Of a stretch of 64,000 bases of DNA, positions 7,431 to 29,948 are shown piece by piece (position 1 is the first letter of the stretch; the number at the start of each line of letters is the position of its first letter). A program made the translations under genes and the position numbers. Source of the DNA: an uncultured Actinomycetota bacterium (lineage in GTDB: Bacteria; Actinomycetota; Actinomycetes; JAHEKZ01); NCBI GenBank assembly GCA_963718235.1, contig CAVQYR010000001.1:512001-576000 (forward strand), in the 5' to 3' direction. A model generated the notes under the pieces. The model had not been told where the DNA came from and did not search any database. It saw only the letters and a program-made list of their open reading frames with translations.

Positions 7431-7439
7431 GCGTCGGGC

Positions 7440-8544
7440 TCAGGCCCGTGGGCGTCGCTTCTGCGGGTCGTACAGCGCCAGCTCGTCGACGACGGCACCG
7501 ACGGCGGTGCCGTCGATGTCGACGCTCAGCCGGGTGCCGTTGGAGGCGACGTCGCGCAGGAGCACCGCCAGGCCGATCGTGCCGAGGCGCGGGCTGACGG
7601 TCGGACTGGTGAGCGTTCCGACGACCTCACCGCCGAGGGTGACCTCACTGCCGTACTCAGGGGCCCGGTCGCCGTCGATGCGCAGGGTCTTGAACCGGTG
7701 CTTCGGGGAGTTGGCGGCCGACACGAGCGCTTCGCGGCCGAGGAAGTCGGCGCCGGAGGCCAGGGCGACCACGCCGTCGAGGCCGACGATCGAAAGGCGA
7801 TCGATCTCCTGCGTGGTAGTCGTAGTCGTGCACGATGAGTCCGGCTTCGACGCGCGCGATCTCCACCCCGCTGAACCCGATGGGACGCACGCCGGCTTCG
7901 GCCAGCGCAAGCCAAAGCGGCTCGGCGTCGTCGCGATCGGCGATGAGCTCGAACCCGAGCTCACCGGAGAAGCCGGTGCGCGACAGCCACACGGGGAAGC
8001 CGGCGACCTCGACCCGCTCGGTGAGGAAGCGGAAGTAGCGCAACGTCGACAGGTCGAAAGCGGTCAGCGACTGCAGCAGCTCGCGCGACTGCTGGCCCTG
8101 CACCGAGATGAGCGGCATCTCCTGGGTGCGGTTCGTGATCGTCAGCGTGGCATCGGGGCTGTGCTGTCGAAGGTGCTCGCCGAAGCCACCGCTGTTGGTG
8201 AAGACGAAGTAGCGTTCGGCGGCCAGGCGATAGACGGTCCCCTCGTCGAGCAGGAGCCCGTCGGCATCGGTGAACGCCCCGTAGCGCACCTGGCCGTCGA
8301 CCATGGAACCGACGTCGTTGGTGAACACCCGCTGGATCGCGCTGGCGGCGTCGGCACCATCGACCGTCCACTTGACCAGTGCGTAGACGTCCCACATGCC
8401 GGCGCCGGTGCGGATGGCCTCGTACTCGGCCAACGGGTCGCCGAGGTCCATCGTCCAGATGGCGCCGTCGAAGTCCTCGAAATGCGCGCCCTGCCTGGCC
8501 TGGACGTCGTAGAGGACCGACCGAACGGCCTCGCCGCTACTCAC
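7440..8544 (-). CDS. Aminomethyltransferase (GcvT-like, folate-binding), frameshifted near 7788
   Basis: EYEAIRTGAGMWDV, RTGFSGELGFEL, RVEAGL in one frame; DFLGREAL...GTLTSPTVSPRLG...LYDPQKRRPRA in another; removing one base gives SPFDVGLDG. Confidence 0.8.
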
Positions 8545-9641
8545 CGGTTCCGCGCACCTTCCGGTAGTACTCGTTGAACTGGTGCACGTAGTCGTCCTTC
8601 GCGGGGTAGACGCCGTGGTCGAACCCGCGGGACCGAACGCCCTTCTGGACCTTCTCCGAGACGGCGTAGTCCTGGCCGGCCACGAGCTCACAGAAGTCGA
8701 CGACGGGCGCCGGGTCGAAGTCGTCAGCGGCGATGTCCTCGGGGAGGAAGAGGTACTCGGTGTGCACCCGGGTCTGGAGTGGACCCTCCGGCACGAGTCG
8801 GGTCGCGACGGCGTTGCTGCCGGCGATGTCGATGAACATGTTGGGGAAGACCTGGCTGCCGAAGATCGAGTGGGTCTGCTCCTCGGTCATGTTGGGGAGC
8901 ACCGCGCGGCGAGCACGCTGGTCGTCGGAGTAGCTGGTGCCGCCGGTCTTGAGCGCGACGCCACCGTCGGACCGCCCGGGCTCGAAGACGACGCCCTTCT
9001 TGTAGGCGGGTACGACCTCGACGAGCTCGGGGTGGACGATCGGGCAGTGCAGGCACTCGTTGTAGTTCTCGATCAGGATCTTCCAGTTGGCCGCCACGAC
9101 GCTCTCGGTGCGGTGCACCGTGCGCAGCTGAGCGAGGTCGTGGATCTCGAACCGGATCGGGGAGTCGTAGTGGGCGTCGAGTGACTCACGCAACGGGGTC
9201 GGGGTCTCGCGGTCGAGGTTGACGAAGACGAAGCCCTGCCACTCGTCGACGTGCACCTGGCGCAGCGACAGCGAGGAGCGGTCGACCTCGTCGGCGTCCA
9301 CCCGAGGGGTTGCCACGAGTGCTCCGTCGAGGTCGTAGCACCAGGCGTGGTACGGACACTGGAAGACGGCCTTCGTGCTGCCCCGCTCGTCCTCGCAGAG
9401 CAGGGAGCCGCGGTGTCGGCACACGTTGTAAAAGGCGCGCAGCTGACCCGACTCGTTGCGGGTCACCAGGACGCTCTCACCGGCGACGTCGACCGTGAAG
9501 AACTGCGCCGGCCTCGCCGGCCTGCTCACTGCGTCCCGCGTACACCCACTGTCGGAACCAGATCTGCTCCTGCTCGAGGGCGTAGGTCTGGTCGTCGTAG
9601 TACTCGTGCGCTGGAAGGGTGCGTCGGGCCGCGGTGCTCAT
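8537..9641 (-). CDS. Rieske non-heme iron oxygenase alpha subunit (choline monooxygenase/stachydrine demethylase-like), frameshifted near 9506
   Basis: Rieske motif CRHRG...CPYHAW, ANWKILIENYNECLHCPIVH; the N-terminus MSTAARRTLPAHEYYDDQTYALEQEQIWFRQWVYAG starts at 9641 after GGAGGAG in another frame. Confidence 0.85.
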
Positions 9642-9654
9642 GTCTCCTCCGAAG

Positions 9655-9677
9655 TTGACCGACTGAACAGTCAGTCA
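9655..9677. promoter_or_regulatory. Palindromic TetR-type operator candidate
   Basis: TTGACCGACTGAACAGTCAGTCA just upstream of the Rieske gene; near-identical to 55424-55443. Confidence 0.6.
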
Positions 9678-9728
9678 GTGAACGCCCACGATACCTCGGG
9701 TGACCGACACACGTACAGCCTTCGGGCC

Positions 9729-9754
9729 GGAACCGACCGCGTGGCATCGTCGTC
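9729..9754 (+). promoter_or_regulatory. ECF-sigma-type promoter GGAACC-N16-CGTC
   Basis: Ends 8 nt before ATG 9763 of the META lipoprotein. Confidence 0.5.
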
Positions 9755-9762
9755 CCATGCAC

Positions 9763-10584
9763 ATGAAGCGACTCGTCAAGCCACTGGTGATCCTGTTCGG
9801 ACTCACCCTGGTGCTGGGTGCGTGCGGCCAGGCGGATGAAGACACCGGTGCGGATGGGGTGACCATGGCCCAGCTCGACGGACGGACCTTCATCGCGACG
9901 GACGGCACCAAGAGCGGTGAGCCGTTCACCGTCGTCGACGGCTCAACCCTCAGGGTCTCCTTCTCCGACGGGCAGATTGCGGCGAACGCGGGCTGCAACA
10001 ACATGGGTGGGGCCGTCTCGCTGGACGGCGACGTCCTGGTGGTCGACGGTGGGCTCATCCAGACCGAGATGGCCTGCAGTGAGCCGCTCATGCGGCAGGA
10101 GCAGTGGTTCTCGACCTTCCTGAGCTCCAAGCCCACGGTCCGCCTCGACGGTGTCACGCTGACGCTGACCCAGGGGACCGACGAGGTGGTCTTCTCCGAG
10201 CAGCAGCCACCGGCCGACCAACCGCTCGTCTCCACGACGTGGCAGCTCGACGGGATCATCAAGGGCGCCGGTGCTCAGGGCAGCGTCTCCAGCGTTCCCG
10301 TGGGGATCGCGGCAACCGTGCAGTTCGACGAGTCCGGTCGGGTCAGCATGTACGCCGGCTGCAACCGGATGAGCGGCCAGTACACGGAAGCCGGCGGCAG
10401 CCATGACGTTGAAGCGCGATGGGGTCGACCAAGATGGCGTGCAGCCCGCCCGAAGGGCGACGGTCGAGGCGGCGATGCTCTCGGTCCTGGACGAGGGTGA
10501 GACGTCGAATACTTGATCGACGGCGACACGCTGACCCTCACCCGCGGTGACGCCGGGTTGGTGCTCAAGGCTGCAGGGGAGTAG
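9763..10584 (+). CDS. META (HslJ-like) double-domain lipoprotein; second domain has several indels at about 10400-10510
   Basis: Lipobox LVLGAC; ANAGCNNMGG...QTEMAC; second AGCNRMSG; out-of-frame GSTKMAC and YLIDGDTLTLTRGDAGLVLKAAGE* ending at 10584. Confidence 0.75.
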
Positions 10585-11392
10585 CGAGCAGCCGCGGCGC
10601 GGTGTCCTTGGGCTCGACGCCGTCACCGCTGGAGACACCGCGCAGCCTTCGGCCCAGCCACGGCGCAAGGTGGGTGCGCGCCCAGTGCGCGTCCTCGAGC
10701 ACGGCCTGACGACGTGCCATCGGAGCCTGCGGCGGAAGTGGCTGGGACCACCACGCCGGGTCGCAACCGGCGGCGCTCGACTCGGCGCCGCTGAGCACGT
10801 GCCAGACCAGGGCGGCGACCCGGCGGTGTCCCTCCGGTCCCAGGTGCAGCCGGTCGGCGTCCCACATCCGTCGGTCGCCGAGCGCCGGCAGCGCTGCCTG
10901 GTCGACCAGGTTCGCTTCGTATCGCCCGGCCGTCGCGCGGATGGAGTCGTTGAATCGGCCGAACCGGTCGGCCAGTCGGCTCGCCGTGCGACCCGTGCCC
11001 CCCGCACGCTCGATGACCGTGAACAGCAGGACGCTGACACCACGGTCGGAGAGCAGACGCACCGCCCGGTCGTAGCGGTTGGCCAGGTCGTGCAGGTCGA
11101 CCCGGGGGCGCAGCGCGTCGTTCGGCCCGCCGTGGAAGGAGACGAGCGTGGTCGGTGGGTCATCGATCATCCGAAGGGCCGGAACGAGCTGCTCGACGAC
11201 GACCTGGTCCAGCAGCTTTCCCCGTACGGCCAGGTTGGCGTAGCGCACCGACCCGTTCGTCGCGGCCAGGGTCTCGACCACGCGGTCGGCCCAGCCGCGG
11301 TAGTGCCCGTCGGGTCGCAGCTCGTCGCTCATGCCCTCGGTGAACGAGTCGCCAAGGGCGAGGAACAGCGAGCAAGGGACTGGTGTGGGCAC
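10565..11392 (-). CDS. SGNH/GDSL hydrolase
   Basis: LALGDSFTEG, YANLAVRG, GGPND, DRLH; TACCGT-6nt-GTG leaderless start. Confidence 0.88.
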   Translation of the reverse strand: MPTPVPCSLFLALGDSFTEGMSDELRPDGHYRGWADRVVETLAATNGSVRYANLAVRGKLLDQVVVEQLVPALRMIDDPPTTLVSFHGGPNDALRPRVDLHDLANRYDRAVRLLSDRGVSVLLFTVIERAGGTGRTASRLADRFGRFNDSIRATAGRYEANLVDQAALPALGDRRMWDADRLHLGPEGHRRVAALVWHVLSGAESSAAGCDPAWWSQPLPPQAPMARRQAVLEDAHWARTHLAPWLGRRLRGVSSGDGVEPKDTAPRLLATPLQP

Positions 11393-11553
11393 ACCGTCAC
11401 GGTAGACGGCCCGGGAATCCCGCGACCGCATCCGGCCTCCGGTACCTAAGGCCCTGGCTGGTCCCAGCAGCCCTGGCTAGCGTGAAAGCGGGCCCGAACT
11501 CGGCGGTTCTCGGGTTTGGGCGGCCAGGGGGCCTAGAGGCTGAGGGAGTCGTC

Positions 11554-12585
11554 ATGACGAGCAGTCAGAGGATTCGGGTCGTCACCGGTGGGGTCGTCTG
11601 GGGCCTGGGCATGGCTCTGGCCGCAACGTTCGTCGCAGCCCCAGTTCAAGCATCGGCGGGACAGGGGGTCGTTCCCCCGCCACCGAGCAGTCTCGTGGTC
11701 AAGGCGAGGGATCTGGGAACGCTCCCCGGGGACTACTCGAGCGCTGCCACCGACATCAACGGCAGCGGGCTCGTCGTCGGCTACAGCTCCTCCGTCTCGA
11801 ACGTGACTCACGCCGCCTTGTGGCGCAGAGGAGTTGTGGTCCGCCTGCCCAGCCCTGGGAGCGAACAGGCCGAGGCCTTCGGCGTGAACGACCGTGGCTT
11901 CGTGGTCGGACGAGTCGGTGCCACTGCGGCCCTGTGGATGCGCGGGAAGCTCATTCGTCTCCAGCCACTTCCGGGAGGAGTCGGCAGCCGCGCCGAGGAC
12001 ATCTCGAACCGCGGACTCATCGTCGGCTACAGCGTCGACGCCGGCGGACATCCGGTTCCGGTGACGTGGTCGTGCGGCCGGGTGCGGGCCCTGGCTCTTC
12101 CTGTGGGTCGTACGGGCGGGCACGCTGACGGAGTGAGCAACTCCGGGCTCGTCGTCGGTGCGGCCGGGCCGGCGCTCAAGTGGACCCGTGGGGTTCCGAG
12201 CGAGCTGGGTCCGCTGGAAGGTGACCTTGGGGGCGTGGCCAGGTCCGTGAACGACCGCGGAGTGGCTGTTGGGTTCAGCTCGAGCAGCACGACGTGGCCG
12301 GTGGTCTGGAAAGGCTCGGCGCCCGCCGCGCTCCAGACCCCGGAAGGGACGACTGCCGGTACCGCCGAGTCCATCAACCGCTGGGGGAACGTCGTGGGCT
12401 GGCTGTCGGTGTCGGGAATGTCGCACCCGGCGCTCTGGTGGCACGGTACGTACGTCGACCTCGGCCCCGCCGGCCGTAGCGGGTACGCCTACGCGATCAA
12501 CGACTACGGGCGAGTCGTCGGGTGGTCGAGCTACGGCGCCACTCTGCATGCCACGCTCTGGAAGGTGACGACACCCGGCACATAG
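11554..12585 (+). CDS. Secreted protein with HAF-type extracellular repeats
   Basis: Signal peptide and repeated DLGTLPG...A-x-[DGS]-[IV]-N-x-x-G-x-VVG units. Confidence 0.8.
   Translation: MTSSQRIRVVTGGVVWGLGMALAATFVAAPVQASAGQGVVPPPPSSLVVKARDLGTLPGDYSSAATDINGSGLVVGYSSSVSNVTHAALWRRGVVVRLPSPGSEQAEAFGVNDRGFVVGRVGATAALWMRGKLIRLQPLPGGVGSRAEDISNRGLIVGYSVDAGGHPVPVTWSCGRVRALALPVGRTGGHADGVSNSGLVVGAAGPALKWTRGVPSELGPLEGDLGGVARSVNDRGVAVGFSSSSTTWPVVWKGSAPAALQTPEGTTAGTAESINRWGNVVGWLSVSGMSHPALWWHGTYVDLGPAGRSGYAYAINDYGRVVGWSSYGATLHATLWKVTTPGT
12571..12585 (+). repeat. Junction site A: acacc-CGGCAC-ATAG
   Basis: Supplies the TAG stop of the HAF-repeat gene. Confidence 0.6.
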
Positions 12586-12696
12586 ACCGACCGGTCGTTG
12601 CGCGAGCATGATCAGGTGGACCTGTCCTCTCACTCGCCCCCCGTGGAGACCTGTTAATCCCTTGCGCCCGGCGCGGGATTGTTGGACGTTGGGCAC

Positions 12697-13695
12697 ATGG
12701 GTTCGCTGCGCGCCGCGCTCGACCGGGAGGCCGAGAGAACGCTTTTCTCGGGCGTGGTGCGGGTCGACCGCGACGGCGCGACCGAGATGATGGCGTACGG
12801 CCACGCTGATCGCGCGTACAGCATCGGGATGACGACCGCTCACCAACTGGGGACCGCGAGCGTGACCAAGGGTTTCACCGCCCTGACGATCCTCAGCATC
12901 GTGGCCGCCGGCGACCTCGAGCTAGCGACGCCGGCGCGCTCGGTGCTCGGCTCCGACCTGCTGCTCGTCGACGACGAGGTCACCGTCGAGCAACTGCTGA
13001 GCCACAGGTCCGGCATTGCTGACTACTTCGACGAGTGGTCGGCGACGAGCAGCGACGACTACGTCATGCCGGTGCCGGTGCACCAGCTCGCGACCAGCGA
13101 GGACTACCTGCCGCTTCTCGACGGCCGGGCACCGGTCTCGGCACCGGGAGCCACGTTCGAGTACAACAACGGGGGCTTCGTCCTTCTCGCGCTCATCGCC
13201 GAGCGCGTGGCCCAGCTGCCGTTCCACGACCTTGTCGCCGAGCGCGTATGGAAGCCAGCCGGCATGGTGCGCACCGCGTTCCTGCGGTCCGACGCTCTGC
13301 CCGGCACGGCAGCGGTGGGTTATCTGGACACTGAGGGACTGCGCACCAATGTGCTGCACCTTCCGGTCCGTGGCAGCGGCGACGGAGGAGCATTCACGAC
13401 TGTCGCGGACATGAGCGCGTTCTGGGATGCGCTCCTCGCTGGCCGTATCGTCCCGGAGCGGTGGGTGGCCGAGATGCTGGTGCCGCGACAGGCGCCAGCC
13501 GGAACGGAGCTCGGCTACGGCCTCGGCGTCTGGCTGCACGCCGGTGGCGTCCTCGAGCTGCACGGGTACGACGCAGGCGTTTCGTATCGGTCGATGCACG
13601 ACCCTGCTTCGGCCAGCACCTGGACGGTCGGGTCCAACACGAGCGGCGGTTCGTGGCCTATGGAGGCGATCCTCGTTGCCGACCTCCCGCCGTGA
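12697..13695 (+). CDS. Serine hydrolase, AmpC/class C beta-lactamase-like
   Basis: SxxK (SVTK), LLSHRSG, FEYNNGGF, GSGDGGAFTT. Confidence 0.85.
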   Translation: MGSLRAALDREAERTLFSGVVRVDRDGATEMMAYGHADRAYSIGMTTAHQLGTASVTKGFTALTILSIVAAGDLELATPARSVLGSDLLLVDDEVTVEQLLSHRSGIADYFDEWSATSSDDYVMPVPVHQLATSEDYLPLLDGRAPVSAPGATFEYNNGGFVLLALIAERVAQLPFHDLVAERVWKPAGMVRTAFLRSDALPGTAAVGYLDTEGLRTNVLHLPVRGSGDGGAFTTVADMSAFWDALLAGRIVPERWVAEMLVPRQAPAGTELGYGLGVWLHAGGVLELHGYDAGVSYRSMHDPASASTWTVGSNTSGGSWPMEAILVADLPP

Positions 13696-13788
13696 CGGGA
13701 TGCAGCTCCAATCCTGCTGAATGCCGAAGATTGCCAGGGTCGGGTACAGCCAAGAAGACCATCGGGCACATCTGCGCTTGCCCGGCCC

Positions 13789-13809
13789 GTGCCGATCACC
13801 GGCACATCG
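13789..13809 (+). repeat. Junction site B: GTGCCG-atcac-CGGCAC-ATCG (palindromic form)
   Basis: Read directly; a degenerate extra copy GGGCACATCT lies at about 13764. Confidence 0.7.
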
Positions 13810-13825
13810 CGCCACGATCACCGGC

Positions 13826-14231
13826 ATGTCCAGATCTATGGGCCGCACTCCCGCGATGCGGTTGACTGGATCTGTGCCAGTCGAGCCTGCGGCGTCCCGG
13901 TGGGGTGTGGCACTTGACCGCCCGTCCACGCGCCGATGGCTCTGGTTCGTCGCCTGGGTTGCGGTGGGGGCCATGGTGCCCATGGTTGTCCTGGGCGCTT
14001 TCACCATCGGCATCTTGTTCATCCCGGTCGCCGGGGTGCTGACATTGATCCTGCTCAGCCGTCGCGCCTCCTGGGTTGGCTTGCCAGGACTGATCACGGG
14101 CATCGGAGTGCCTCTGCTGGTGTTGGTAGGAGTGGGCCCCGTGGCCGTTTCTGCTGGTCAGCCTTGGACTCCTCATCGGCGGCATCGTCGTGTTCACCAG
14201 GCAGCGACCCAAGCCACCTGCCCCCGACTGA
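13826..14231 (+). CDS. Small multi-pass membrane protein, frameshifted near 14138
   Basis: Hydrophobic helices WLWFVAWVAVG..., continuing in a shifted frame as PWPFLLVSLGLLIGGIVVFTRQRPKPPAPD*. Confidence 0.55.
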
Positions 14232-14309
14232 TACCCCGACCCAGTGCAACCCGGAGGCCCTCGTGAGTGGGACGGTCGCTCCCGCACCGGCTAAGCCCTG
14301 AACGCCAAC

Positions 14310-14324
14310 GAGAACGGCACATCG
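14310..14324 (+). repeat. Junction site C: gagaa-CGGCAC-ATCG
   Basis: Read directly, intergenic. Confidence 0.75.
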
Positions 14325-14452
14325 ACGTGGCGACCGCCCCTTGAGACCGCGTTTCGCCTCGCTTCGTGGGCCACGCCTTTGTGTCCGTGTGGTGAGCGCG
14401 AACACGACGCTCTCCGTTGGCGGGGAGCCGGTACCGCGTCTAGCGTTGAGAC

Positions 14453-15376
14453 ATGAGAGCCATGGCCTATGACGCGTACGGTTCCGACGACGCTTTGACC
14501 TTGCGGGACATGCCCGATCCGAAGGTGGGTCCAGGCGAAGTGCGCATCCGGGTGAGACGCGCCGGAGTGAATCCGGTCGACTGGAAGGTGATGTCCGGTG
14601 GGCTGGATGGCCTCATGGACGCCGTCTTCCCGGTCATCCCCGGCTGGGATGTCGCCGGAACGGTCGAGACAGTCGGCATCGACGCCCCAGAGTTCGAGGT
14701 CGGCGACGAAGTCGTGGCATACGCACGCAAGGACGTGGTCCACGGCGGCACCTTCGCCGAACTGGTGACGATGAGCGTCCGGGGCGTGGCTCGCAAGGCG
14801 GAAGCGTTGAGTTGGGACGAGGCGGGCGGCCTCCCGCTCGCCGGGCTGACAGCCCTCCAGACGCTCGACCGGTTGACCGTCTCCGCCGCGGATACGGTTC
14901 TCGTGCACGGCGGAGCAGGGGGTGTCGGCGCCCTCGCCATCCAGATCGCCAAGGCGCGCGGCGCCCGTGTGATCGCCACCGCGTCGCCGGCCAACCACGA
15001 GTTCCTCTCCGGCCTCGGGGCCACGCCGGTCGCGTATGGCGACGGCGTCGTGCAGCGCATCCTCGAGGTTGCGCAGGACGGTGTCGACGTCGTCGCTGAC
15101 TTCGTGGGCGGGGTTCGCGACGTCACAATGGCCGTGCTCGCCACTGGCGGAAGGCACGCCTCCATCGCCGACGCTTCGGTGCTGGAGACCGGAGGCTCGT
15201 GGTTCTGGGTGCGGCCCTCGTCCGAGGGCCTGGCCGAGCTCGGTCAGCTGGCAGACGCCGGGCAGCTGTACGTCCCGGTTGCCGACGTCCTACCTTTGGA
15301 GGAGCTGACCGCTGCTTTCGCGCGCAGCCGGGAGGGTCATGTGCGCGGCAAGCTCGTCATCTCCGTCGCGGACTGA
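14453..15376 (+). CDS. NADP-dependent oxidoreductase (MDR/quinone reductase family)
   Basis: AGVNPVDWK, PGWDVAG, HGGAGGVG, GHVRGKLVI; TAGCGT-6nt-ATG. Confidence 0.9.
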   Translation: MRAMAYDAYGSDDALTLRDMPDPKVGPGEVRIRVRRAGVNPVDWKVMSGGLDGLMDAVFPVIPGWDVAGTVETVGIDAPEFEVGDEVVAYARKDVVHGGTFAELVTMSVRGVARKAEALSWDEAGGLPLAGLTALQTLDRLTVSAADTVLVHGGAGGVGALAIQIAKARGARVIATASPANHEFLSGLGATPVAYGDGVVQRILEVAQDGVDVVADFVGGVRDVTMAVLATGGRHASIADASVLETGGSWFWVRPSSEGLAELGQLADAGQLYVPVADVLPLEELTAAFARSREGHVRGKLVISVAD

Positions 15377-15377
15377 A

Positions 15378-15398
15378 GTGCCGTAGAACGGCACTCGG
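15378..15398 (+). repeat. Junction site D: GTGCCG-tagaa-CGGCAC-TCGG (palindromic form)
   Basis: Immediately after the TGA at 15376, between convergent genes. Confidence 0.75.
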
Positions 15399-15429
15399 CG
15401 GCAGAGCGGTTAGGCCAGGGTGTAGTCGA

Positions 15430-15840
15430 TCATCGGTAGGGGAGGTAGTCGATGCGGGTCGCGCGTCGCCGCCACCCTGGAAGGGGCCAGACGTTGTGCC
15501 AGGTACGGCTGACTGCGGTGCCGTCGCGCTCCTCAACGCAACCGCCCCGCCCCAGGTGGTAGGCGGTGGCTCTGCCCGCGACTGCTATGTCGAGGGTGTG
15601 CTCAACCGCCGGGCGGTCCCTGCTCGCGTCCTCTCCGAGTACTGCCGGGGCTGAGGCTGGGTCATCCAGGCGCACAGTTCCTGTTCCACCGATACCGAGG
15701 TACAGCACGACCCCTACTGATCCGGGGTTGTTGGGCTGGAGTCGGCAGGTGGACGAGCCGTCCTCGTCCGTGACCTCTAGGACTGCACAGTCAGGGAGTT
15801 GCGCGGCGCGTTCCTCGGAGTAGCTGCGCAGCTGCGACAT
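15430..15840 (-). CDS. Hypothetical protein
   Basis: ORF MSQLRSYSEERAAQLPDC...RIDYLPYR fills the interval between sites D and E. Confidence 0.55.
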   Translation of the reverse strand: MSQLRSYSEERAAQLPDCAVLEVTDEDGSSTCRLQPNNPGSVGVVLYLGIGGTGTVRLDDPASAPAVLGEDASRDRPAVEHTLDIAVAGRATAYHLGRGGCVEERDGTAVSRTWHNVWPLPGWRRRATRIDYLPYR

Positions 15841-15892
15841 GAGGACACGATTCGGGGAAGCCGTGGACCGTTCGTCGCATACCAACGCGAGC

Positions 15893-15907
15893 GAGATCGG
15901 CACGTCT
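15893..15907 (+). repeat. Junction site E: gagat-CGGCAC-GTCT
   Basis: Enclosed by the 9-bp inverted repeat AACGCGAGC/GCTCGCGTT. Confidence 0.7.
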
Positions 15908-15996
15908 GCTCGCGTTTCGGAGGGATGCGACCACCTGTCCAGCGTCATCCCGAGTGAGGATCCGCCTGCCTCCGGGTCCCGTGCCCCGGCGCGCCT

Positions 15997-16677
15997 TCAC
16001 GACTGCTCGGCGTCCGCGACCCCGAACTGTGTCCACTGCCCCTCGGAGATCACCTCGACGGAGCCGTCGACGACCTTGATGGCCGTCTGCTCGTCGATGG
16101 CGTAGGCGGGGATGCCGAGGTCAGCCGCCCACCGCTCCGCGTTGGCCAGGGTGTTGTCGGGGAAGGCGTTCAGGTGCGGGAAGATCGAGAAGTCGACGAC
16201 TCCCAACGTGCGGTCGTCCGGCGCGGACGGCCACTCCACGAAGGCCGCACCGACCCTCGGCGTCATCACCATGCTCCCAGCGCTCACCCCGACCCAGGCC
16301 TTGTCCGACAGCGTCGGCAGCAGGTCCGCTAACCCTGACTCGCGCATCCAATGGCACAGGTACGTCGCGTCACCGCCGTCGACAAGTAGCACGTCGGCCT
16401 CTCTGACCCATGGCACCCACCGCTCGGGCCCGATCGTGGGCAGTGCGGTGAGCTCGAGGACGCCAAGGGACGCCCAGCCCAAGCCGGACAGGTAACGGAA
16501 GTCGGGTTCGCACGCGACCAAGCCCCGCACCGATGTCGGGCCGCACATCGGGTGACCCCACTGCGCGGTCGGGACGCAGAGGGCGTGGCACTCCTCGACC
16601 GGCTTGCCAAGAAGTAGCACGAGCGCTGAGTGGATGGTTGGGTTCGTTACGCCCCCCGACGTAAGCAGCAGCTTCAT
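15997..16677 (-). CDS. Peptidase E (S51) family, class I amidotransferase-like
   Basis: MKLLLTSGG, VDGGDATYL, VGVSAGSMV, IFPHL, YAIDEQTAI. Confidence 0.85.
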   Translation of the reverse strand: MKLLLTSGGVTNPTIHSALVLLLGKPVEECHALCVPTAQWGHPMCGPTSVRGLVACEPDFRYLSGLGWASLGVLELTALPTIGPERWVPWVREADVLLVDGGDATYLCHWMRESGLADLLPTLSDKAWVGVSAGSMVMTPRVGAAFVEWPSAPDDRTLGVVDFSIFPHLNAFPDNTLANAERWAADLGIPAYAIDEQTAIKVVDGSVEVISEGQWTQFGVADAEQS

Positions 16678-16780
16678 GGTGCCTCCCGATTCGTGTGCGG
16701 GCTCGCAGACCGGCAGTAGCAGTCAAGCTCAAGTCAGACTCAGCCGACCGCGAATACATGTTCAACCGCGGGAGGCGATG

Positions 16781-16795
16781 CAGATCGGCACATAG
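16781..16795 (+). repeat. Junction site F: cagat-CGGCAC-ATAG
   Basis: Read directly, intergenic. Confidence 0.75.
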
Positions 16796-16825
16796 AGGGC
16801 GGTTGTTCGCACCCAGGAGTGCCGT

Positions 16826-17233
16826 TCAGTTGATGATCTCGCTGCCATCTGCGCGAATCGCCGCCAACCGGTCCCGCCACTCCTGTAGGGCCGCCGGTGT
16901 CAGCCGCGTCCAGTCGGTCACCTCGCCAACGATCCTGAGTGCCTCTCCGCTGCGGTAGGACCGGGTTGGGTTACCGGGGAACTTCCTGTCGGTCACGTTC
17001 GGGTCGTCCTCGAACGCCCCAATCGGCTCAACGGCGTAGACCCGGGGAGCTGCGTCGCCTGGCGCGAGTTCCGCAGCGAGCCCCGCACCGTCACGCAGTG
17101 CAGTGAAGTAGATGTGGTTCATCAGGACTTCCGGTCGGTAGTTCGACCGGAAGCCCGGGATGAGGAGATCCCCCATCCCCAGGTCGGCTTTCGTTCCGTG
17201 GAAGAACGGCCCCTCATCCAGCACGTCGCTCAA
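16826..17233 (-). CDS. arr: NAD(+)-rifampicin ADP-ribosyltransferase
   Basis: GPFFHGTKADL, NHIYFTA, VEPIGAFEDDPNVTDRKFPGNPTRSYRS; GGAGG RBS before TTG 17233. Confidence 0.93.
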   Translation of the reverse strand: MSDVLDEGPFFHGTKADLGMGDLLIPGFRSNYRPEVLMNHIYFTALRDGAGLAAELAPGDAAPRVYAVEPIGAFEDDPNVTDRKFPGNPTRSYRSGEALRIVGEVTDWTRLTPAALQEWRDRLAAIRADGSEIIN

Positions 17234-17301
17234 GGCCACTACCTCCGGGGACGAGACAAAGGTGCACTCGGACATCTTCGCGGATCATGCGAGAACCGAG
17301 C

Positions 17302-17316
17302 GCGATTTGCACATAG
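17302..17316 (+). repeat. Junction site G (degenerate): gcgat-TTGCAC-ATAG
   Basis: Two core mismatches but the correct position and flanks. Confidence 0.5.
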
Positions 17317-17361
17317 GCACGGCCTTGCCCAGTTCAGCCGTTACCGAGGATCATCCTCCGT

Positions 17362-17559
17362 ATGACATGGCGGCGATTCGCCCTCGGCGGACTCAGTTCC
17401 CTTGTGGCGCTCGTCGGCTATGTCGTGCTGTACCCGAGGCTTGTCGCTGCGGGCCATGCACCTCTGGACGCCCTCGGTTGGGCGCTGGCAGCTGCGTGTC
17501 TGGGCCTGTTCCTGGGCTCTCTCCTCATGGCGATCATGTCGCCGGCCAGGAGGCGCTGA
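17362..17559 (+). CDS. Small two-TM membrane protein (65 aa)
   Basis: Two hydrophobic helices; fits between sites G and H. Confidence 0.55.
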   Translation: MTWRRFALGGLSSLVALVGYVVLYPRLVAAGHAPLDALGWALAAACLGLFLGSLLMAIMSPARRR

Positions 17560-17570
17560 CCCATCCCGTC

Positions 17571-17585
17571 CAGATCGGCACATCG
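17571..17585 (+). repeat. Junction site H: cagat-CGGCAC-ATCG
   Basis: Between convergent genes. Confidence 0.75.
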
Positions 17586-17609
17586 GCGCGGCAGTGCCGG
17601 TGGTGACTG

Positions 17610-18071
17610 TCAATCGACAACTACTGGATCGTCGTCGGGGTTGAACACCGCTATCTCCTCGGGATCCAGGTCACAGGCGGTGGGGACCTCCAGAGCGATG
17701 TCAGCCGAGTCGGGGGCGTGGAAGCCACCCGCGCCTTGGACCGACTGACCCTCGGCGACCAGTGACCCGGACGGTAGCCGCACGACGAGCGGGTCAGCAT
17801 CGTCGAGCTCGGTGCCGCTCGGCCAGATGACCGCCACCACGCGATCCGGCGCGTATCCGAGCGCCAGGCCGACGCAGCCGTTGCGCAGGATCAGCGTTCC
17901 CGTGATCAGCGCGTCCTCCCCGCCACGCGGCAGCAGCGAGTCCTTGTGGACCATCAGGGTGACATCGCCTTCCGTCACAACCGTCTGCCCGCCACAAGCC
18001 GCGACGGTCGCCATGAGAACCACGGCGGCGCCCATGTAACCCGCCCGACGCCAATCAGCCGGTGCTCCCAT
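17610..18071 (-). CDS. Hypothetical lipoprotein
   Basis: Lipobox-like TVAACGG; DALITGTLILRNGCVGL...VIWPSGT...GAGG. Confidence 0.6.
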   Translation of the reverse strand: MGAPADWRRAGYMGAAVVLMATVAACGGQTVVTEGDVTLMVHKDSLLPRGGEDALITGTLILRNGCVGLALGYAPDRVVAVIWPSGTELDDADPLVVRLPSGSLVAEGQSVQGAGGFHAPDSADIALEVPTACDLDPEEIAVFNPDDDPVVVD

Positions 18072-18109
18072 AAGGGTCAGAATGCCGGATTGGGTGCAGG
18101 AAGGCGATC

Positions 18110-18124
18110 GAGAACGGCACCTCG
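18110..18124 (+). repeat. Junction site I: gagaa-CGGCAC-CTCG
   Basis: Between divergent genes. Confidence 0.75.
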
Positions 18125-18173
18125 GTGCGCCGGGCTCGGACTGGTTTCGTCGGGTCGTGGATAGCATCAGACG

Positions 18174-18779
18174 ATGTCCTTCGATGCCGTCATCTTCGAC
18201 CTTGGTGGCGTGCTCATCGACTATCAAGGAGTCGAACCGCTGAAGGTTCTCGCCGGCATTCAGGACGAGCAAGAGTTGTGGCGGCGCTGGCTCAGCTGCG
18301 AGTGGGTTCGCCGCTTCGAGCGGGGCCAGTGCTTGCCGGCGGAGTTCGCGAGTGGGGTTGTCGCCGATTGGGACCTTGGCGTGACCCCGGATGTGTTCCT
18401 GGCCCAGTTCCGGAGCTGGGTCCACGGGACGATCCCGGGTGCTGATGCCTTGGTCGCGGCCGTGCGGACCGAGGTTCCGGTGGCGTGCCTGAGCAATACC
18501 AACAGCCTGCACTGGCTCGACGGGGCATCGCAGTGGCCCTTCGTCGACCTGCTCGACCATGTCTTCTTGTCGTTCCAGCTGGGGATGGTCAAGCCCGACC
18601 GGGAGATCTTCGACCACGTCAGCCGGCAACTAGGGGCACCGGGCCGACGGCTGCTGTTCCTGGACGACAACACCTTGAACGTCGAGGCGGCAGTCGATGC
18701 TGGGTGGATCGCGGCAAAGGTGGACGGGGTGAATCAGGCCACGCAGGCACTCGCCCACCATGGGGTCCTACCCAGATGA
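18174..18779 (+). CDS. HAD-family phosphatase
   Basis: IFDLGGVL, LSNT, KPDREIF, FLDDNTLNV. Confidence 0.9.
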   Translation: MSFDAVIFDLGGVLIDYQGVEPLKVLAGIQDEQELWRRWLSCEWVRRFERGQCLPAEFASGVVADWDLGVTPDVFLAQFRSWVHGTIPGADALVAAVRTEVPVACLSNTNSLHWLDGASQWPFVDLLDHVFLSFQLGMVKPDREIFDHVSRQLGAPGRRLLFLDDNTLNVEAAVDAGWIAAKVDGVNQATQALAHHGVLPR

Positions 18780-18800
18780 CCGCACCTGTCCTCCGACGCA

Positions 18801-18815
18801 CATAGCGGCACTTCG
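18801..18815 (+). repeat. Junction site J: catag-CGGCAC-TTCG
   Basis: Between convergent genes. Confidence 0.6.
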
Positions 18816-18823
18816 GGGCGGCG

Positions 18824-19609
18824 TCAGGGCACCTGCCCGATTGCCTCCAGAACTGAGTCTTCGAGCCCGCGATAGCAGGTGAGGCACTCATCAATGGCCT
18901 CGAAGCCGACCGACTCATAGAGGGGCCGCCCGGCTGGCGTGGCCAGGAGAAGCGCTTCCGATGTTGCAGTCGACCATGTCGCGGCGAGGGCAGTCGTCAG
19001 GGCCGCCCTGCCTGCCCCTCGTCCCTGATGTCGCTTTGGCGTCATCATCTCCATGACTCCGATGCTGGATCCGGACCGACAGATCCAGACGGTGCTTACC
19101 GGTTGTCCACCGTGTCGAGCCAGCCACACCTGGGCCGCACCGAAACGAGCCGCCTGGCCCATGCTGGCGTCGAGCAAGTCGAGATCGACCGTGTGCGCCT
19201 CAGAGGTCAGGCGCAGCGCGACCTCGAGGTCCCCGTCGGTTTCGCAGCGCGAGACGCTGAACTTCGACGGGACGACCTCGGGTCGGTATCCGCACCTCAT
19301 CAAGGGCTCGGACATCTCGCCAGTGGTGAACCCCGCGTCAGTCAGGACGCGACGCGACGCAGGGATCAGATGCTCGGACGTGAAGACGATCCCCGGTTGA
19401 TCGGTGCCAACAACCTGTGCCAGATCGGAGGCGGACTTGTCGGATGCCCTCGGGGAGAGGCCGCAGACGTTCAGCTCGGCACTGCTCATCCGAGACAGCG
19501 CGGCGAACCAGCCATCCGACAGCACTCGTTCCGCCTCGACCCCGGCGGCGTAGAAATCGACGCACAGCGAAGCGAAGGACTCCCACGACTTCTGAAGGGC
19601 TGGATCCAT
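18824..19609 (-). CDS. GNAT family N-acetyltransferase
   Basis: TPKRHQGRGAGRA and ATPAGRPLYESVGF acetyl-CoA binding motifs. Confidence 0.8.
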   Translation of the reverse strand: MDPALQKSWESFASLCVDFYAAGVEAERVLSDGWFAALSRMSSAELNVCGLSPRASDKSASDLAQVVGTDQPGIVFTSEHLIPASRRVLTDAGFTTGEMSEPLMRCGYRPEVVPSKFSVSRCETDGDLEVALRLTSEAHTVDLDLLDASMGQAARFGAAQVWLARHGGQPVSTVWICRSGSSIGVMEMMTPKRHQGRGAGRAALTTALAATWSTATSEALLLATPAGRPLYESVGFEAIDECLTCYRGLEDSVLEAIGQVP

Positions 19610-19696
19610 GTGAGCGATACTGGCACCGATATTGCTCGGGTGACGTCGCCAGCTCGTGGGTACGAGCCGAACTGGAGAGCGCGAGGAGGACACCGG

Positions 19697-19711
19697 GCGT
19701 TCGGCACCGAG
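19697..19711 (+). repeat. Junction site K: gcgtt-CGGCAC-CGAG
   Basis: Intergenic, more divergent flanks. Confidence 0.5.
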
Positions 19712-19779
19712 GTCGCCGGCGTCACTCGCATACCTTCGCTCGTCCGACCTGGCGCGGGCTCGATCGCCTGACTGCCGGG

Positions 19780-20622
19780 TCAGGACTTGGCGGGCGTGAA
19801 CGACATGTGGCGATAGCCGGACTCGTCAAGCACCACCACGGTCGACTCGGGCACCTCGAGAAAGGCCCCCGGTAGGTCGTTCAGCGGCTCGGAGACGATG
19901 ACGTGGGCCGCCTCGCCAAAGGTATTCAGGCGCTCGACGTCCGGGTACATCTGCCGCAGTGCGCTGATGTCCGCGGAGTGGAACAGGCTGCGCGACTGGC
20001 CCTGCGAGGAGTACCGGAAGGCCCAGACCGTCGCGCCGTCGGAGACCGCGAGGGTGCCCTGCATCGGGAAGCGGATGTCGTGGGCGTGGCCCACCGACTC
20101 GACGAGCTCGATCGTTCGCTGCATGGCGGTAACCGGGTCGTCGCGCAGGTCGAAGGTGAGCGCGAGGTGGAACAACACCTCCGAGTCGGTCGTCCCCTTG
20201 ATGTCCGGGTACAGGGACGGGTCGACGGCGAACGTGAGCTCGCGCTTGACGGAGCCGAAGTCGGCGAGGGCGCCGTTGTGCATGAACAGCCAGTTCTCGA
20301 AGCGGAAGGGGTGGCAGTTCGTCTGCTGGATCGGTGGCCCCGCAGCGGCTCGCACGTGGGAGAAGAACAGAGGCGAGGACACGGCCTGGGTGATCTCACG
20401 CAGGTTCTGGTCGTTCCACGCGGGCTCGGTGCTGTGGAACACGCCCGGAGTCACGGGCGAGGACCCGGCGTCGGGGTACCAGCCGAAGCCGAAGCCGTCA
20501 CCGTTAACGGTCTCCGCGCCCAGGGGCGAGTCGAGGGACTGGGCGACCAGGGAGTGCTTGGGGTGCAAGACCAGTTCTGAGGCTCGGATCGGTTCACCTG
20601 AGTACGCCAGCCAACGGCACAT
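19780..20622 (-). CDS. Class II glutamine amidotransferase (EgtC/YafJ-like)
   Basis: N-terminal MCRWLAY, NGDGFGFGWY, HVRAA, NCHPF, HNG, GTTDSE. Confidence 0.9.
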   Translation of the reverse strand: MCRWLAYSGEPIRASELVLHPKHSLVAQSLDSPLGAETVNGDGFGFGWYPDAGSSPVTPGVFHSTEPAWNDQNLREITQAVSSPLFFSHVRAAAGPPIQQTNCHPFRFENWLFMHNGALADFGSVKRELTFAVDPSLYPDIKGTTDSEVLFHLALTFDLRDDPVTAMQRTIELVESVGHAHDIRFPMQGTLAVSDGATVWAFRYSSQGQSRSLFHSADISALRQMYPDVERLNTFGEAAHVIVSEPLNDLPGAFLEVPESTVVVLDESGYRHMSFTPAKS

Positions 20623-20714
20623 GGCGAGACCTCCTGACGGGGTCGGTGGGTGCTTCGGGTTGCCAGCTTCGACGCTAGTGTGCGGACGGCCGCACTTCGA
20701 AGGGACTTCTGTCA

Positions 20715-21437
20715 GTGAGCACTCACCTGTCTGCCGAGCCGGGGGCCATCGCCGAGCGGGTCCTGCTGCCCGGTGACCCGCTGCGGGCCCAGTGGGTGGC
20801 GGAGACGTTCCTGGACGACGCGTCCTGCTACAGCAGCGTGCGCAGCATGTTCGGCTACACGGGCACCTTCGAGGGTGTCCCGGTCTCGGTGCAGGGGACG
20901 GGCATGGGGATCCCCTCGATGTCGATCTACGCCCACGAGCTGTTCGCCGAGTACGGCGTGCGCACGGCGATCCGGATCGGAACGGCCGGCGCCCTGAGGC
21001 CGGAGGTCGGGGTCCGCGACGTCGTCCTGGCGCAGGCCGCGAGCACCGACTCCGGGACCAACCGTGGTCGGTTCCCTGGGGTCGACTTCGCCCCGGTGGC
21101 CGACTTCGGGCTGCTCGCGCGGGCCCACGCCATCGCCACCGAGCGCGACCTGTCGGTGCATGTGGGGGGAGTGCTGACCTCCGACCTGTTCTACGGCGAC
21201 CTCGAGGCGACCCTGCGGCTCGCGGAGTTCGGGGTCCTGGCCGTGGAGATGGAGACCAACGCCCTTTACACCCTGGCCGCGCAGTTCGGGGTGCGCGCAC
21301 TGTCGGTGCTCACGATCTCCGACCACCTCCTCACCAAGGAGGAGACCTCGGCCGACGAACGTCAGCGAACCTTCGGTGAGATGGTCGAGGTTGCCCTGCG
21401 GGCTGCCGTCGGCGAGCCCGGAGCCGTACAGTCGTAG
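20715..21437 (+). CDS. deoD: Purine-nucleoside phosphorylase
   Basis: [36 protein letters not shown]. Confidence 0.95.
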
Positions 21438-21439
21438 GC

Positions 21440-21658
21440 ATGGAAGACACCCCTGTCGACGACGGTCGCAAGCCGACTCCAGACGAGCCACAGGCAACGC
21501 CCGAGGACGACCTGCGCCGCAAGTACCGCGAGGCACTCGATCGCAAGAACCACGCGTCACACGCATCCGCGGCCGAGGCCGAGTCCAGCGGCAAGGCGGT
21601 GGCCGGACACACCAACGCCAAGACCCAGCGGATGTTCCGTCGCAAGTCCGGCGGCTGA
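21440..21658 (+). CDS. DUF5302-like small actinobacterial protein
   Basis: RKYREALDRK...RMFRRKSGG. Confidence 0.75.
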   Translation: MEDTPVDDGRKPTPDEPQATPEDDLRRKYREALDRKNHASHASAAEAESSGKAVAGHTNAKTQRMFRRKSGG

Positions 21659-21700
21659 GGCGTCACGGTCGCATGGCGCCGAGGGGTCGGTGAGGGGACG

Positions 21701-22852
21701 ATGAGCCACTCCGGGCTGTCCGCCGAGCACGAGGCGCTGCGCCGGACGGTGGAGGAGTTCGCACGCGAGGTCGTCGCACCCGTCATGGGTGAGCACGACG
21801 AGGCCCACACGTTTCCCTACGACGTCGTCCGGCAGATGGGCGAGCTGGGCCTGTTCGGCCTGCCGTTCCCGGAGGAGTACGGAGGACAAGGGGGCGACTA
21901 CTTCGCCCTGTGCCTGGCGATCGAGGAGCTGGCCAGGGTCGACTCCTCGGTGGCGATCACCCTCGAGGCGGCGGTCTCACTGGGAGCGATGCCGCTGTTC
22001 CGGTTCGGCACGCCCGAGCAGTGTCGTCAGTGGCTCCCCGAGCTGACCTCCGGACGCCGACTGGGTGCCTTCGGGCTCACCGAGCCCGCCAGCGGCTCCG
22101 ACGCCGGCGGACTGGCCACCTCGGCGGTCCGCGACGGCGACGAGTGGGTCATCAACGGCAGCAAGTCCTTCATCACCAACTCCGGCACGGACATCACCGG
22201 GTTCGTGACCGTGGCCTCCGTCACCGGCCGCAAGCCCGACGGGCGACCGGAGATCTCGACGATCCTGGTGCCCGCCGGCACCCCCGGTCTGACCGTCGAC
22301 CCTGCGTACTCCAAGGTCGGCTGGAACGCCTCGGACACCCACGGGCTGACCTTCGACGACTGTCGGGTGCCGGTGGGCAACCTCGTCGGTGAGGAGGGGC
22401 GCGGCTACGCCCAGTTCCTGCAGATCCTCGACGAGGGCCGGATCGCGATCGCTGCGCTGTCCGTGGGACTGGCCCAGGGGTGCCTCGACGAGTCCCTGCG
22501 GTACGCCGGCGAGCGTCAGGCGTTCGGTGCGCCGATCGGCGCCAACCAGGCGATCGCCTTCAAGGTGGCTGACCTCGAGGTGCGGGCGTACACGGCACGG
22601 CTGGCCTACTACGAGGCCGCGCGCCTGATGGCGGCCGGCGTGCCGTTCAAGCGTCAGGCAGCAATCGCCAAGCTGTACGCCTCGGAGGCCGCCGTCACCA
22701 ACGCGCGCGAGGCGACGCAGATCTTCGGGGGCTACGGGTTCATGAACGAGTATCCCGTGGCCCGGATGTGGCGCGACAGCAAGGTGCTCGAGATCGGTGA
22801 GGGCACCTCAGAGGTGCAGCGGATGCTCATCGCCCGCGACCTGGGGCTGTGA
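21701..22852 (+). CDS. Acyl-CoA dehydrogenase
   Basis: FGLTEPASGSDA, INGSKSFITN, RQAFG, IFGGYGF, EIGEGTSEVQ. Confidence 0.95.
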   Translation: MSHSGLSAEHEALRRTVEEFAREVVAPVMGEHDEAHTFPYDVVRQMGELGLFGLPFPEEYGGQGGDYFALCLAIEELARVDSSVAITLEAAVSLGAMPLFRFGTPEQCRQWLPELTSGRRLGAFGLTEPASGSDAGGLATSAVRDGDEWVINGSKSFITNSGTDITGFVTVASVTGRKPDGRPEISTILVPAGTPGLTVDPAYSKVGWNASDTHGLTFDDCRVPVGNLVGEEGRGYAQFLQILDEGRIAIAALSVGLAQGCLDESLRYAGERQAFGAPIGANQAIAFKVADLEVRAYTARLAYYEAARLMAAGVPFKRQAAIAKLYASEAAVTNAREATQIFGGYGFMNEYPVARMWRDSKVLEIGEGTSEVQRMLIARDLGL

Positions 22853-22886
22853 CCGACCGAATCCGAACATCCCTGTCGCCGCCGGC

Positions 22887-27934: not shown

Positions 27935-29948
<2,014 letters not shown>

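Follow-up and report, generated by a model that had tools for sequence, protein, structure and literature searches.

The window analysed here is the whole stretch of 64,000 nucleotides (nt) of contig CAVQYR010000001.1, from the genome of an uncultured actinobacterium (3.17 Mb, 70% G+C) that is called G000 below, with C1 and C2 as its contigs. Between 11.4 and 19.8 kb this window contains a series of unrelated genes separated by copies of one short sequence built around the hexamer CGGCAC. The region is probably an integrase-less array of about ten single-gene cassettes, integron-like in plan and neither an integron nor an Xer/dif system; this judgement is a joint one and includes the crossover at the core and the recombinase YR2 discussed below. 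A previous reading of the letters alone (the sequence-only reading) had listed eleven sites on the + strand, separated by intervals of 1224, 515, 1074, 509, 888, 521, 269, 539, 691 and 896 bp. The eleven strings, their coordinates and strand and the ten intervals are all exact, and the single gene that it placed in each interval is found by open reading frame (ORF) and Pfam calls. The observation is real, with seven to eight full sites among the eleven. The interpretation given to it, a cassette array formed by site-specific insertion at a site other than attC, is supported by the clustering of the sites, the variable locus and the position of breakpoints, and is extended here by a second array, by a spread over at least three actinobacterial families and by a candidate recombinase with an attI-like element and a polarity rule.

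The CGGCAC hexamer alone is found at chance level, with 124 copies in the window against 112.9 +/- 10.8 in shuffled sequence, and 16 of 100 shuffles reach 124. The longer pattern GAWCGGCACATMG, with up to two mismatches, has 16 matches in the window against 6.2 +/- 2.3 and is never reached in 100 shuffles; seven of the 16 lie inside the array, every one on the + strand. The true site is longer than the motif originally proposed, SAGAW-CGGCAC-ATMG, and measures about 30 nt: alignment of the copies of both arrays gives a left arm GCGAnCGAGAW, the core CGGCAC and a right arm nTCGGnGCGG. An exact 13-mer of the longer motif has six copies in G000, three in the window array and three at C1:1181994-1184417. 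Judged by its primary sequence, the site is a conserved one of apparently double-strand type, about 30 bp long. Scores are given below in bits of matrix A, which is 36 nt wide and was built from 61 sites, none taken from the window; 39 of about 6.3 million positions of G000 reach 15 bits or more. By this matrix seven of the eleven sites are full (14.7 to 33.2 bits), the one at 15389 is marginal and the one at 19702 is unsupported. Those at 12576 and 13800 are read as half-sites because the 10-mer CGGCACATMG is rare, with only 31 occurrences in G000. In the rest of the window the motif is rare: the roughly 56 kb outside the array contain two weak matches of 10 bits or more, at 28595 (-) and 58941 (+).

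The left conserved flank gene is a 406-aa ORF (9943..11163, - strand) without Pfam match. The first gene of the variable region encodes a 400-aa repeat protein (11383..12585, +) with a weak, sub-threshold DUF3466 match; it is not found at the syntenic place of G001, the sole genome of the same genus compared, and its stop codon lies inside the first half-site. This half-site, CGGCACATAG (12576..12585, +; matrix A -16.2), comprises the core and the start of the right arm without the left arm. It is followed by a serine hydrolase of beta-lactamase fold (12679..13695, +; PF00144, E = 1.5e-39) and by the second half-site, CGGCACATCG (13800..13809, +; -14.4), which has GTGCCG 5 nt upstream; the 12 nt ending in the core recur in nearly the same form 17 nt downstream. 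Within 13789-13832 the GTGCCG and CGGCAC of this half-site form a 6-bp inverted repeat with a 5-nt loop. The next cassette gene encodes a 121-aa putative membrane protein (13936..14301, +), known from the ORF list and without Pfam match, for which 13721-14266 is an alternative ORF. The full site with core at 14315 (14301..14330, +; 25.1 bits) precedes a zinc-type quinone oxidoreductase/ADH (14453..15376, +; PF08240, PF13602, PF00107), in the minority orientation relative to its site. The marginal site with core at 15389 (15375..15404, +; 6.3 bits) is the consensus minus one base after the core, and the gene to its right (15430..15840, -) encodes a hypothetical protein without Pfam match; its longest ORF reaches 15948, and the ATG at 15840 keeps the following site intergenic.

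The right part of the array contains the highest-scoring sites. S5, with core at 15898 (15884..15913, +; 30.5 bits), is followed by a peptidase S51 of the peptidase E family (15997..16677, -; PF03575). S6, with core at 16786 (16772..16801, +; 28.3 bits), lies 40 nt from the stop codon of arr, a gene of the rifampin ADP-ribosyltransferase family (16826..17275, -; PF12120, E = 3e-45). A degenerate full site with core TTGCAC at 17307 (17293..17322, +; 14.7 bits) precedes a putative gene of 65 aa, possibly a small membrane protein (17362..17559, +; ORF list, no Pfam match). Then come S8, with core at 17576 (17562..17591, +; 28.0 bits), and a lipoprotein-like protein of 153 aa (17610..18071, -) without Pfam match. 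S9 is a bipartite full site (18079..18130, +; 33.2 bits) with the module AGAATGCCGGAT from 18079 and the core at 18115, and its right-hand gene is a HAD-family hydrolase in the minority orientation (18174..18779, +; PF00702, PF13419). The full site with core at 18806 (18792..18821, +; 15.3 bits) is of a CATAG-CGGCAC subtype also found at G000:C1:1182748 and at position 8462 of L008, the array locus of G003 (a genome of another genus). The last cassette gene encodes a GNAT acetyltransferase (18824..19693, -; PF13508, PF13673, PF00583), which would be shortened by a start at the ATG near 19610. At the right end of the variable region there is only the hexamer (19702..19707, +; matrix A -0.6), which may be a chance occurrence. 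The products of the array without Pfam family are the 65-aa ORF, the 121-aa membrane protein, a 172-aa ORF and the lipoprotein-like ORF. The right conserved flank gene encodes a protein with a class-II glutamine amidotransferase domain (19780..21300, -; PF13230). The array is not located at a tRNA gene. To its left, 8555-9682 matches two to four places in most of 19 genomes of the family at 66-78% identity, as well as G000:C1:786466-787583, and is therefore part of a multi-copy gene family.

The ten genes are not a fixed block. Both flanks are kept in G001: window 7002-11413 is 75% identical to contig C5, with homology ending at about 11413, and window 19798-23414 is 81% identical to C341:3649-7244. 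An overlap of about 127 nt between these contigs shows the locus to be contiguous in that genome. The roughly 4.6 kb between the flanks hold five other genes by a reading of the sequence without Pfam calls; they resemble an F420-type oxidoreductase, a dienelactone hydrolase, a cyclase-like protein, a membrane protein and one more; this stretch has no matrix match of 13 or more.

The sites of the whole genome were scanned with matrix B, built from 46 sites, all of them from genomes other than G000, at a threshold of 15 bits. Six matches fall in the 8-kb window array, 17 in the 19 kb of C1:1.173-1.192 Mb and 18 in the remaining 3.14 Mb, so that the two arrays have 23 of the 41 matches in 0.85% of the DNA; the genome scan that the sequence-only reading had proposed thus agrees with it. 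The exact pattern GAWCGGCACNTCGG has 13 matches in G000, nine of them inside the two arrays. A solitary strong site (28-31 bits) is found at G000:C2:324356 (+), far from both.

The second array (C1:1.174-1.191 Mb; locus L001, where L-numbers denote fetched loci) is located beside a tRNA-Gly gene, on an island with tRNA-Pro and trigger factor as neighbours. Its cargo consists of one-gene units: two SnoaL, HAD, an F420H2-dependent quinone reductase, 2'-5' RNA ligase, NUDIX, two mycothiol-S-transferase/DinB, a methyltransferase, APH, an epimerase, an arginase and a rhodanese. GNAT, HAD, NUDIX, DinB/MST, SnoaL, methyltransferase, APH and arr are cargo of the kind carried in integron cassettes. The 3' half of the tRNA-Gly gene, 49 nt from the anticodon loop, is present in three copies. 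A direct repeat of 305 nt (copies at 1179564-1179868 and 1191373-1191677, 99% identical) extends from the tRNA half as far as a site, where it ends exactly at CGGCAC; beyond the core the copies diverge. The sites at 1185666 (+) and 1187994 (-) are 90% identical over 60 nt, inverted, and placed at a polarity switch, which is a signature of inversion. A 91% copy of window 15887-16141, that is S5 and the 3' part of the peptidase-E cassette, is found at C1:1187036-1187289 (-). That copy sits at the polarity switch, and a further minus-strand site copy lies near 1187283. The island also encodes a phage-type integrase (C1:1180184-1181407, L001 6184-7407), full length and 78% identical to a 419-aa homologue, with one in-frame stop where 15 aligned homologues have an invariant Trp. 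Remnants of another phage-type integrase lie at C1:1167650-1167860, the island holding remnants of several integrases.

Comparison of cassettes between genomes places the breaks of homology at the core. The G003 array has six sites (L008 7842, 8462, 11029, 11505, 12941 and 13833). The peptidase-E unit, window 15898-16791, is 78% identical to G003:C5:200941-201838 from site to site, and the homology of the lipoprotein unit (G003:C5:195835-196257) begins at window 17569, in S8; the lipoprotein-like protein has 63% aa identity to the product of the gene right of G003 site 7842. These two units occur in G003 in the opposite order and with different neighbours. At the S5 junction, compared with G003 and with the second array of G000, the left flanks differ and the right ones match from CGGCAC onwards. 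The S6 junction compared with G003 is the reverse, and homology stops at the core. G003 site 7842 is composed of the left arm of window S9 (94% identity over 34 nt) joined to the right flank of window S8. The flank of arr in G002 is homologous only from just right of the core at S6. Breaks at CGGCAC are thus found in four comparisons (S5, S6, the 305-nt repeat and the G002 arr flank), and the breakpoints coincide with the motif as had been predicted.

The arr homologues, of 78-85% aa identity, occur in G001, G002, G005, G006 and G129, with adjoining sites in G006, G001 and G129; in G129 the gene is inside an array of another family (L172 9417-9863, between sites 8955 and 10217). The quinone-reductase homologues (87-92% aa identity) of G001, G008, G013 and G019 have no site nearby, nor do the serine-hydrolase homologues of the same genomes; both are ordinary chromosomal copies there and are uninformative on breakpoints. 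The flanks of the congeneric genomes G129 and G150 are 93-95% identical; in place of the single bipartite site of G150, G129 has an additional 2.37 kb, bounded by sites and comprising two genes, an internal site and a small ORF. From comparisons such as these, the sites are very probably the joints at which cassettes recombine.

Beyond the 30-nt consensus, a TGCCGG or GGCCGG box is present 16-29 nt before the core in 36 of 149 unique sites of the fetched loci, with distance peaks at 16-18 and 26-28 nt. In the bipartite sites, about a quarter, this second box comprises an arm-like sequence and the module TGCCGGATC, upstream of the core; the 16 nt preceding the box look like a left arm. A stricter form, GCCGG[AT]T, was found 23 times on the site strand and once on the reverse complement in a set of 112 sites. 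In three long-form sites of G003 (L008 about 8340-8470, 10900-11035 and 12820-12945) box and core are not 16-28 nt apart but separated by an element of about 110 nt that the three have in common. Neighbouring sites on the same strand have a median spacing of 634 nt (interquartile range 462-1245, 94 spacings). Read in the + frame of the site, the gene to the right is on the minus strand in 55 of 83 called cases, its stop codon then lying a median of 32 nt from the core, and on the plus strand in 28. The sequence-only reading placed sites at tandem, convergent and divergent junctions; their orientation follows gene direction in about two thirds of cases.

The candidate enzyme is YR2, an Xer-like tyrosine recombinase whose full-length relatives have 302-303 aa and match PF13495, PF00589 and PF02899. 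The only copy of G000 (C1:1174619-1175389) is located at the second array; it matches only residues 46-302, the first 45 being missing, and retains the C-terminal motifs. The alignment of P0132, a YR2 homologue, with XerD (1a0p) pairs residues 30-281 with 20-279, has only short gaps and matches all six catalytic residues (R, K, H, R, H, Y). Homologues at or above 74% identity are found in G000, G005 (split), G001 (fragments), G092 of another family (intact), G150 of a third family (two intact copies), G129 and G247 (both partial). In G000, G005, G001, G092 and G150, YR2 has matrix matches of at least 12 bits at a distance of up to about 0.5-2 kb; in G129 the match is about 4 kb away, and in G247 there is a core-level match only, about 1.2 kb away. 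Relatives at or below 61% identity have no matrix match nearby. The G092 locus runs from trigger factor through a phage-type integrase, a site, YR2 and an IS30-like transposase to about 11 sites, which reach the contig end; the transposase (HTH_38 and rve, L155 10510-11946) directly follows the intact YR2. Both YR2 copies of G150 are directly followed by an extracytoplasmic function (ECF) sigma factor and a 249-aa ORF (L156 5000-6297). Short YR2-like fragments lie beside arrays in G129 and G150 (L173, L175, L176, L184, L171), with 80-93% nucleotide identity to the intact G150 copies.

The co-occurrence of site and YR2 was followed in two larger samples. The exact pattern AWCGGCACNTCGGNGCG is infrequent in the class: of 401 genomes, 289 lack it, and a reversed control is near zero. 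A few genomes have more of it, among them G129 (27), G150 (24), G170 (11), G005 (8) and G000 (7); the unpublished genomes G025, G054, G308 and G372, with 0-5 matches each, enter only the pattern tallies and support no claim. Of the seven genomes with a close YR2, six belong to the 11 that have at least four exact matches (Fisher P = 6e-10, a figure that overstates independence because the compared genomes are kin from three families). An independent search of metagenome contigs with P0132 gave 80 loci. Sites are carried by 23 of the 46 loci with at least 79% identity (45 sites in 155 kb of flank) and by none of the 34 loci at or below 70% (137 kb of flank). Polarity in these loci follows one rule: every upstream site (18 of 18) shares the strand of YR2, and every downstream site (27 of 27) has the opposite one. 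L222 has ten sites of one polarity in 4.5 kb.

Approximately 115 nt upstream of the YR2 start there is a conserved element made of an arm-like sequence and TGCCGG, about 60 conserved nt and a second left arm, which runs into the YR2 leader and not into CGGCAC. In the two loci compared, L192 and L186, unrelated minus-strand cassette genes begin directly left of it. By analogy the element appears attI-like, and the layout resembles that of intI, attI and cassettes. The arrangement of recombinase, adjacent primary site and array reading away is found in L186, L192, L194, L211 and G092; the window has the array only. The 150-aa and 156-aa ORFs that lie between YR2 and the last site are unrelated and without Pfam family, and the idea of a conserved partner gene was rejected. 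Taking residues, association and polarity together, it is fairly likely that YR2 is the enzyme acting on the sites.

The observed site, clustering, breakpoints, and co-occurrence and polarity with YR2 allow a mechanism to be proposed, in which YR2, a 302-aa Xer-like tyrosine recombinase with six catalytic residues, would cut and join the sites. Strand exchange would take place at the core or its right edge, as the four comparisons of junctions indicate. Left arm and upstream box would then travel with the left-hand DNA and the right arm with the right-hand DNA, so that left arm and box would belong to the left cassette, as the 5' leader of its usual minus-strand gene. Written in the commonest gene sense, a cassette would comprise GTGCCG, an arm, an optional box, the ATG, the gene and its stop codon, about 30 nt and a remnant of the right arm. 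The attI-like element lies just upstream of YR2, abutted by variable cassettes, and the site arrays on either side of YR2 have mirrored polarity. Both arrays of G000 are probably frozen now, in the manner of a cluster of attC sites lacking integrase (CALIN), since YR2 is truncated and the island integrase is stopped.

The nearest known systems are integrons and CALINs. Shared features are arrays of small genes, unrelated and mostly one to a unit, with recombination sites of a single kind between them, a median unit of about 0.6 kb, a simple Xer-like tyrosine recombinase with a special proximal site and cassettes reading away, GNAT, NUDIX, DinB, arr and APH cargo and, as in CALINs, an array without recombinase in the window. 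In contrast, P0132 scores 73.2 bits on TIGR02249 (cut-off 265) and 43 on NF011946 (cut-off 435), and YR2 lacks a catalytic-domain insertion relative to XerD; part of PMC8138268 gives such an insertion as the defining trait of the integron-like subgroup. The absence of attC cores, already part of the original description, holds at every junction by regular expression: no RYYYAAC/GTTRRRY cores are present there, and a crude attC-core search of 12501-19800 gave two pairs, both inside gene 15430-15840. The attC-type hairpin was rejected as well, the single-strand DNA folds of 16 sites being no lower in energy than shuffles (z from +0.96 to -2.79, two of 16 at or below -2). Pairing of TGCCG with CGGCA is present in 10 of 13 bipartite folds, both halves being nearly invariant, and many site copies have merely a 4-bp GCAC/GTGC dyad around an NTCG loop. 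Further differences from integrons are a primary sequence, rather than a structure, conserved across three families, the position of most of the conserved site 5' and not 3' of the cassette gene, arrays on both sides of the recombinase in mirrored polarity, and a third of the genes reversed. According to passages of PMC4889954 and PMC9024848, complete integrons are absent from Actinobacteria. The system is integron-like in its working and, having by these tests neither an IntI integrase nor attC sites, no member of the family.

Other systems share fewer traits. In pdif modules, genes are bounded by short sites on which an Xer-type tyrosine recombinase acts; discrete gene modules, short sites and an Xer-type enzyme are also found here, the nearest families of YR2 being XerD and XerC, whereas the sites of the array are in direct and not alternating orientation. 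YR2 reaches only 129 bits against 330 on XerD and 125 against 335 on XerC (125-131 against 279-335 over the XerC/D models), and G000 has separate Xer genes at C1:1704622 and C2:800775, distinct from YR2. A dif site has an XerC arm, a 6-bp spacer and an XerD arm, and the host XerC/D act on it. A dif/Xer origin of the motif was rejected, as the dif candidate near C1:1739243 has no likeness to it. Tandem accretion of integrative and cis-mobilisable elements occurs at tRNA genes, and the second array resembles it in its tRNA-Gly island, its three tRNA 3'-half copies and its integrase remnants; it differs in single-gene units of about 0.6 kb and in a site that is not a tRNA-derived attachment site (att), and the window array lies at no tRNA gene. 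Repetitive extragenic palindromes (REP) and their mosaic elements (BIME) are repeats dispersed in the intergenic DNA of the chromosome and linked to the RAYT transposase. Like them, the site is short, intergenic, often just after a stop codon and with a small dyad. In contrast to them, it is confined to accessory islands, marks homology breakpoints and is linked to a tyrosine recombinase (no search aimed at RAYT was made). The literature searched contains no description of this site or system.

Three other explanations have to be weighed against cassette recombination. An unlikely one is that the repeat is an expression element, such as a 3' stem-loop or terminator, a promoter or leader, or a selfish repeat like REP or miniature inverted-repeat transposable elements (MITE), in islands assembled by other means. 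The position of the core after stop codons in 55 of 83 called neighbours would be expected of such an element, as would an upstream box that often abuts the start codon and, lying on the sense strand, could be a weak -10 box at the distance of leaderless mRNA, and the 4-bp stem around the NTCG loop of many copies. The fold energies speak against it, and an Rfam scan of L001 and L008 (the window array being outside that scan) found tRNAs only; the breaks at the core and the site-bounded insertions and deletions, the absolute polarity switch at YR2 (45 of 45 sites) and the concentration of matches in two small regions would be left unexplained. Still less probable is that YR2 and its nearest inverted sites form a transposon-like unit, the remaining sites being scars or solo ends and the arrays by-products. 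The sites on the two sides of YR2 are indeed always inverted to each other, and YR2 is patchy, often multi-copy, at contig ends and degraded. The nearest site lies at varying distances, however, 410-850 nt upstream or 470-1110 nt downstream, and unrelated genes stand in between; up to ten sites of the same polarity follow one another (L222), and the arrays of the window and G003 are far from any YR2. This idea is given the lowest probability of the three.

Only marginally better placed, and likewise very improbable, is a reading in which the island's phage-type integrase moves small integrative elements, the sites are their att and the arrays grow by tandem accretion, as happens with cis-mobilisable elements beside integrative and conjugative elements (ICEs). 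The distance between the end of this integrase and the first + site in the second array is 54 nt, and a site marks the end of the 305-nt island repeat. In L024, the genomic relative nearest to this integrase (67% identity), a single strong site lies at 1.7 kb, and G092 likewise has a phage-type integrase beside tig and the array. Nevertheless, the identity block of this integrase is the 49-nt tRNA-Gly 3' half, in three copies that lack the motif; no such integrase is found at the window array or the G003 array, and the polarity rule is centred on YR2 instead. Its relatives have a matrix match of 14 or more in only four of 80 loci (1.28 Mb), L024 being the sole close one. The island integrase was rejected as the enzyme on the grounds that its att is the tRNA-Gly half and 76 of 80 relative loci have no match of 14 or more. 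L024 contains, just upstream of its own integrase gene, a 96-nt copy (71%) of the integrase 3' end (10004-10099 and 11375-11470), which suggests an insertion into, or beside, a resident integrase gene.

Several facts weigh against cassette recombination by YR2 itself, besides the kinship of the compared genomes. The window contains no PF00589 gene or other tyrosine recombinase, and both recombinase candidates of G000 are defective, YR2 by truncation and the island integrase by its stop. G003 has its six-site array and no close YR2, and G170, G268, G196 and G293 combine 4-11 exact pattern matches with the absence of any YR2 match at E <= 1e-60. Of the metagenome loci with a close YR2, half (23 of 46) are site-less, mostly short contigs, and in a subgroup of 81-82% (L201-L210) a site is present in only one of ten. 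The cores of tyrosine recombinases typically have inverted binding arms around a 6-8-bp spacer, and no clear pair of this kind is seen in the sites. Integrons have fewer reversed genes than the one third found here. Breaks at a repeated sequence of 30-60 nt could in principle also come from homologous recombination. Finally, no excised circle, empty site within one population or recombination event was seen; in four sequencing runs of one study (X1-X4), possibly including the source sample, 25-44% of sampled words are present, and their Logan contigs, too short (220-980 nt) and shallow (depth 2-5) to speak for or against it, bridge several of the reference junctions and contain no joint at sites.

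Textbooks present integrons as the device by which bacteria stockpile and reshuffle genes, and the present system looks like a second, non-integron way for bacteria to do the stockpiling. The near-absence of integrons from Gram-positive phyla is treated as an open puzzle in sections of PMC4889954 and PMC9024848. The balance leans slightly towards Actinobacteria owning an independently evolved cassette platform, with YR2 instead of IntI, an attI-like element and, where integrons use a folded attC, a conserved double-strand site some 30 bp long. Its cassettes would have their own 5' leader, its arrays would extend to both sides of the recombinase, and the platform itself would travel among at least three families on tRNA-Gly islands. 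If this is true, cassette platforms arose at least twice, each time from a different Xer-like recombinase, and their sites follow more than one logic, here that of a specific duplex sequence and not of a folded single strand. There would also be a new compact pair of recombinase and site for high-GC hosts, and a large, unsearched pool of actinobacterial cassette genes, including resistance-type genes such as arr and APH, could be found by means of one short motif.

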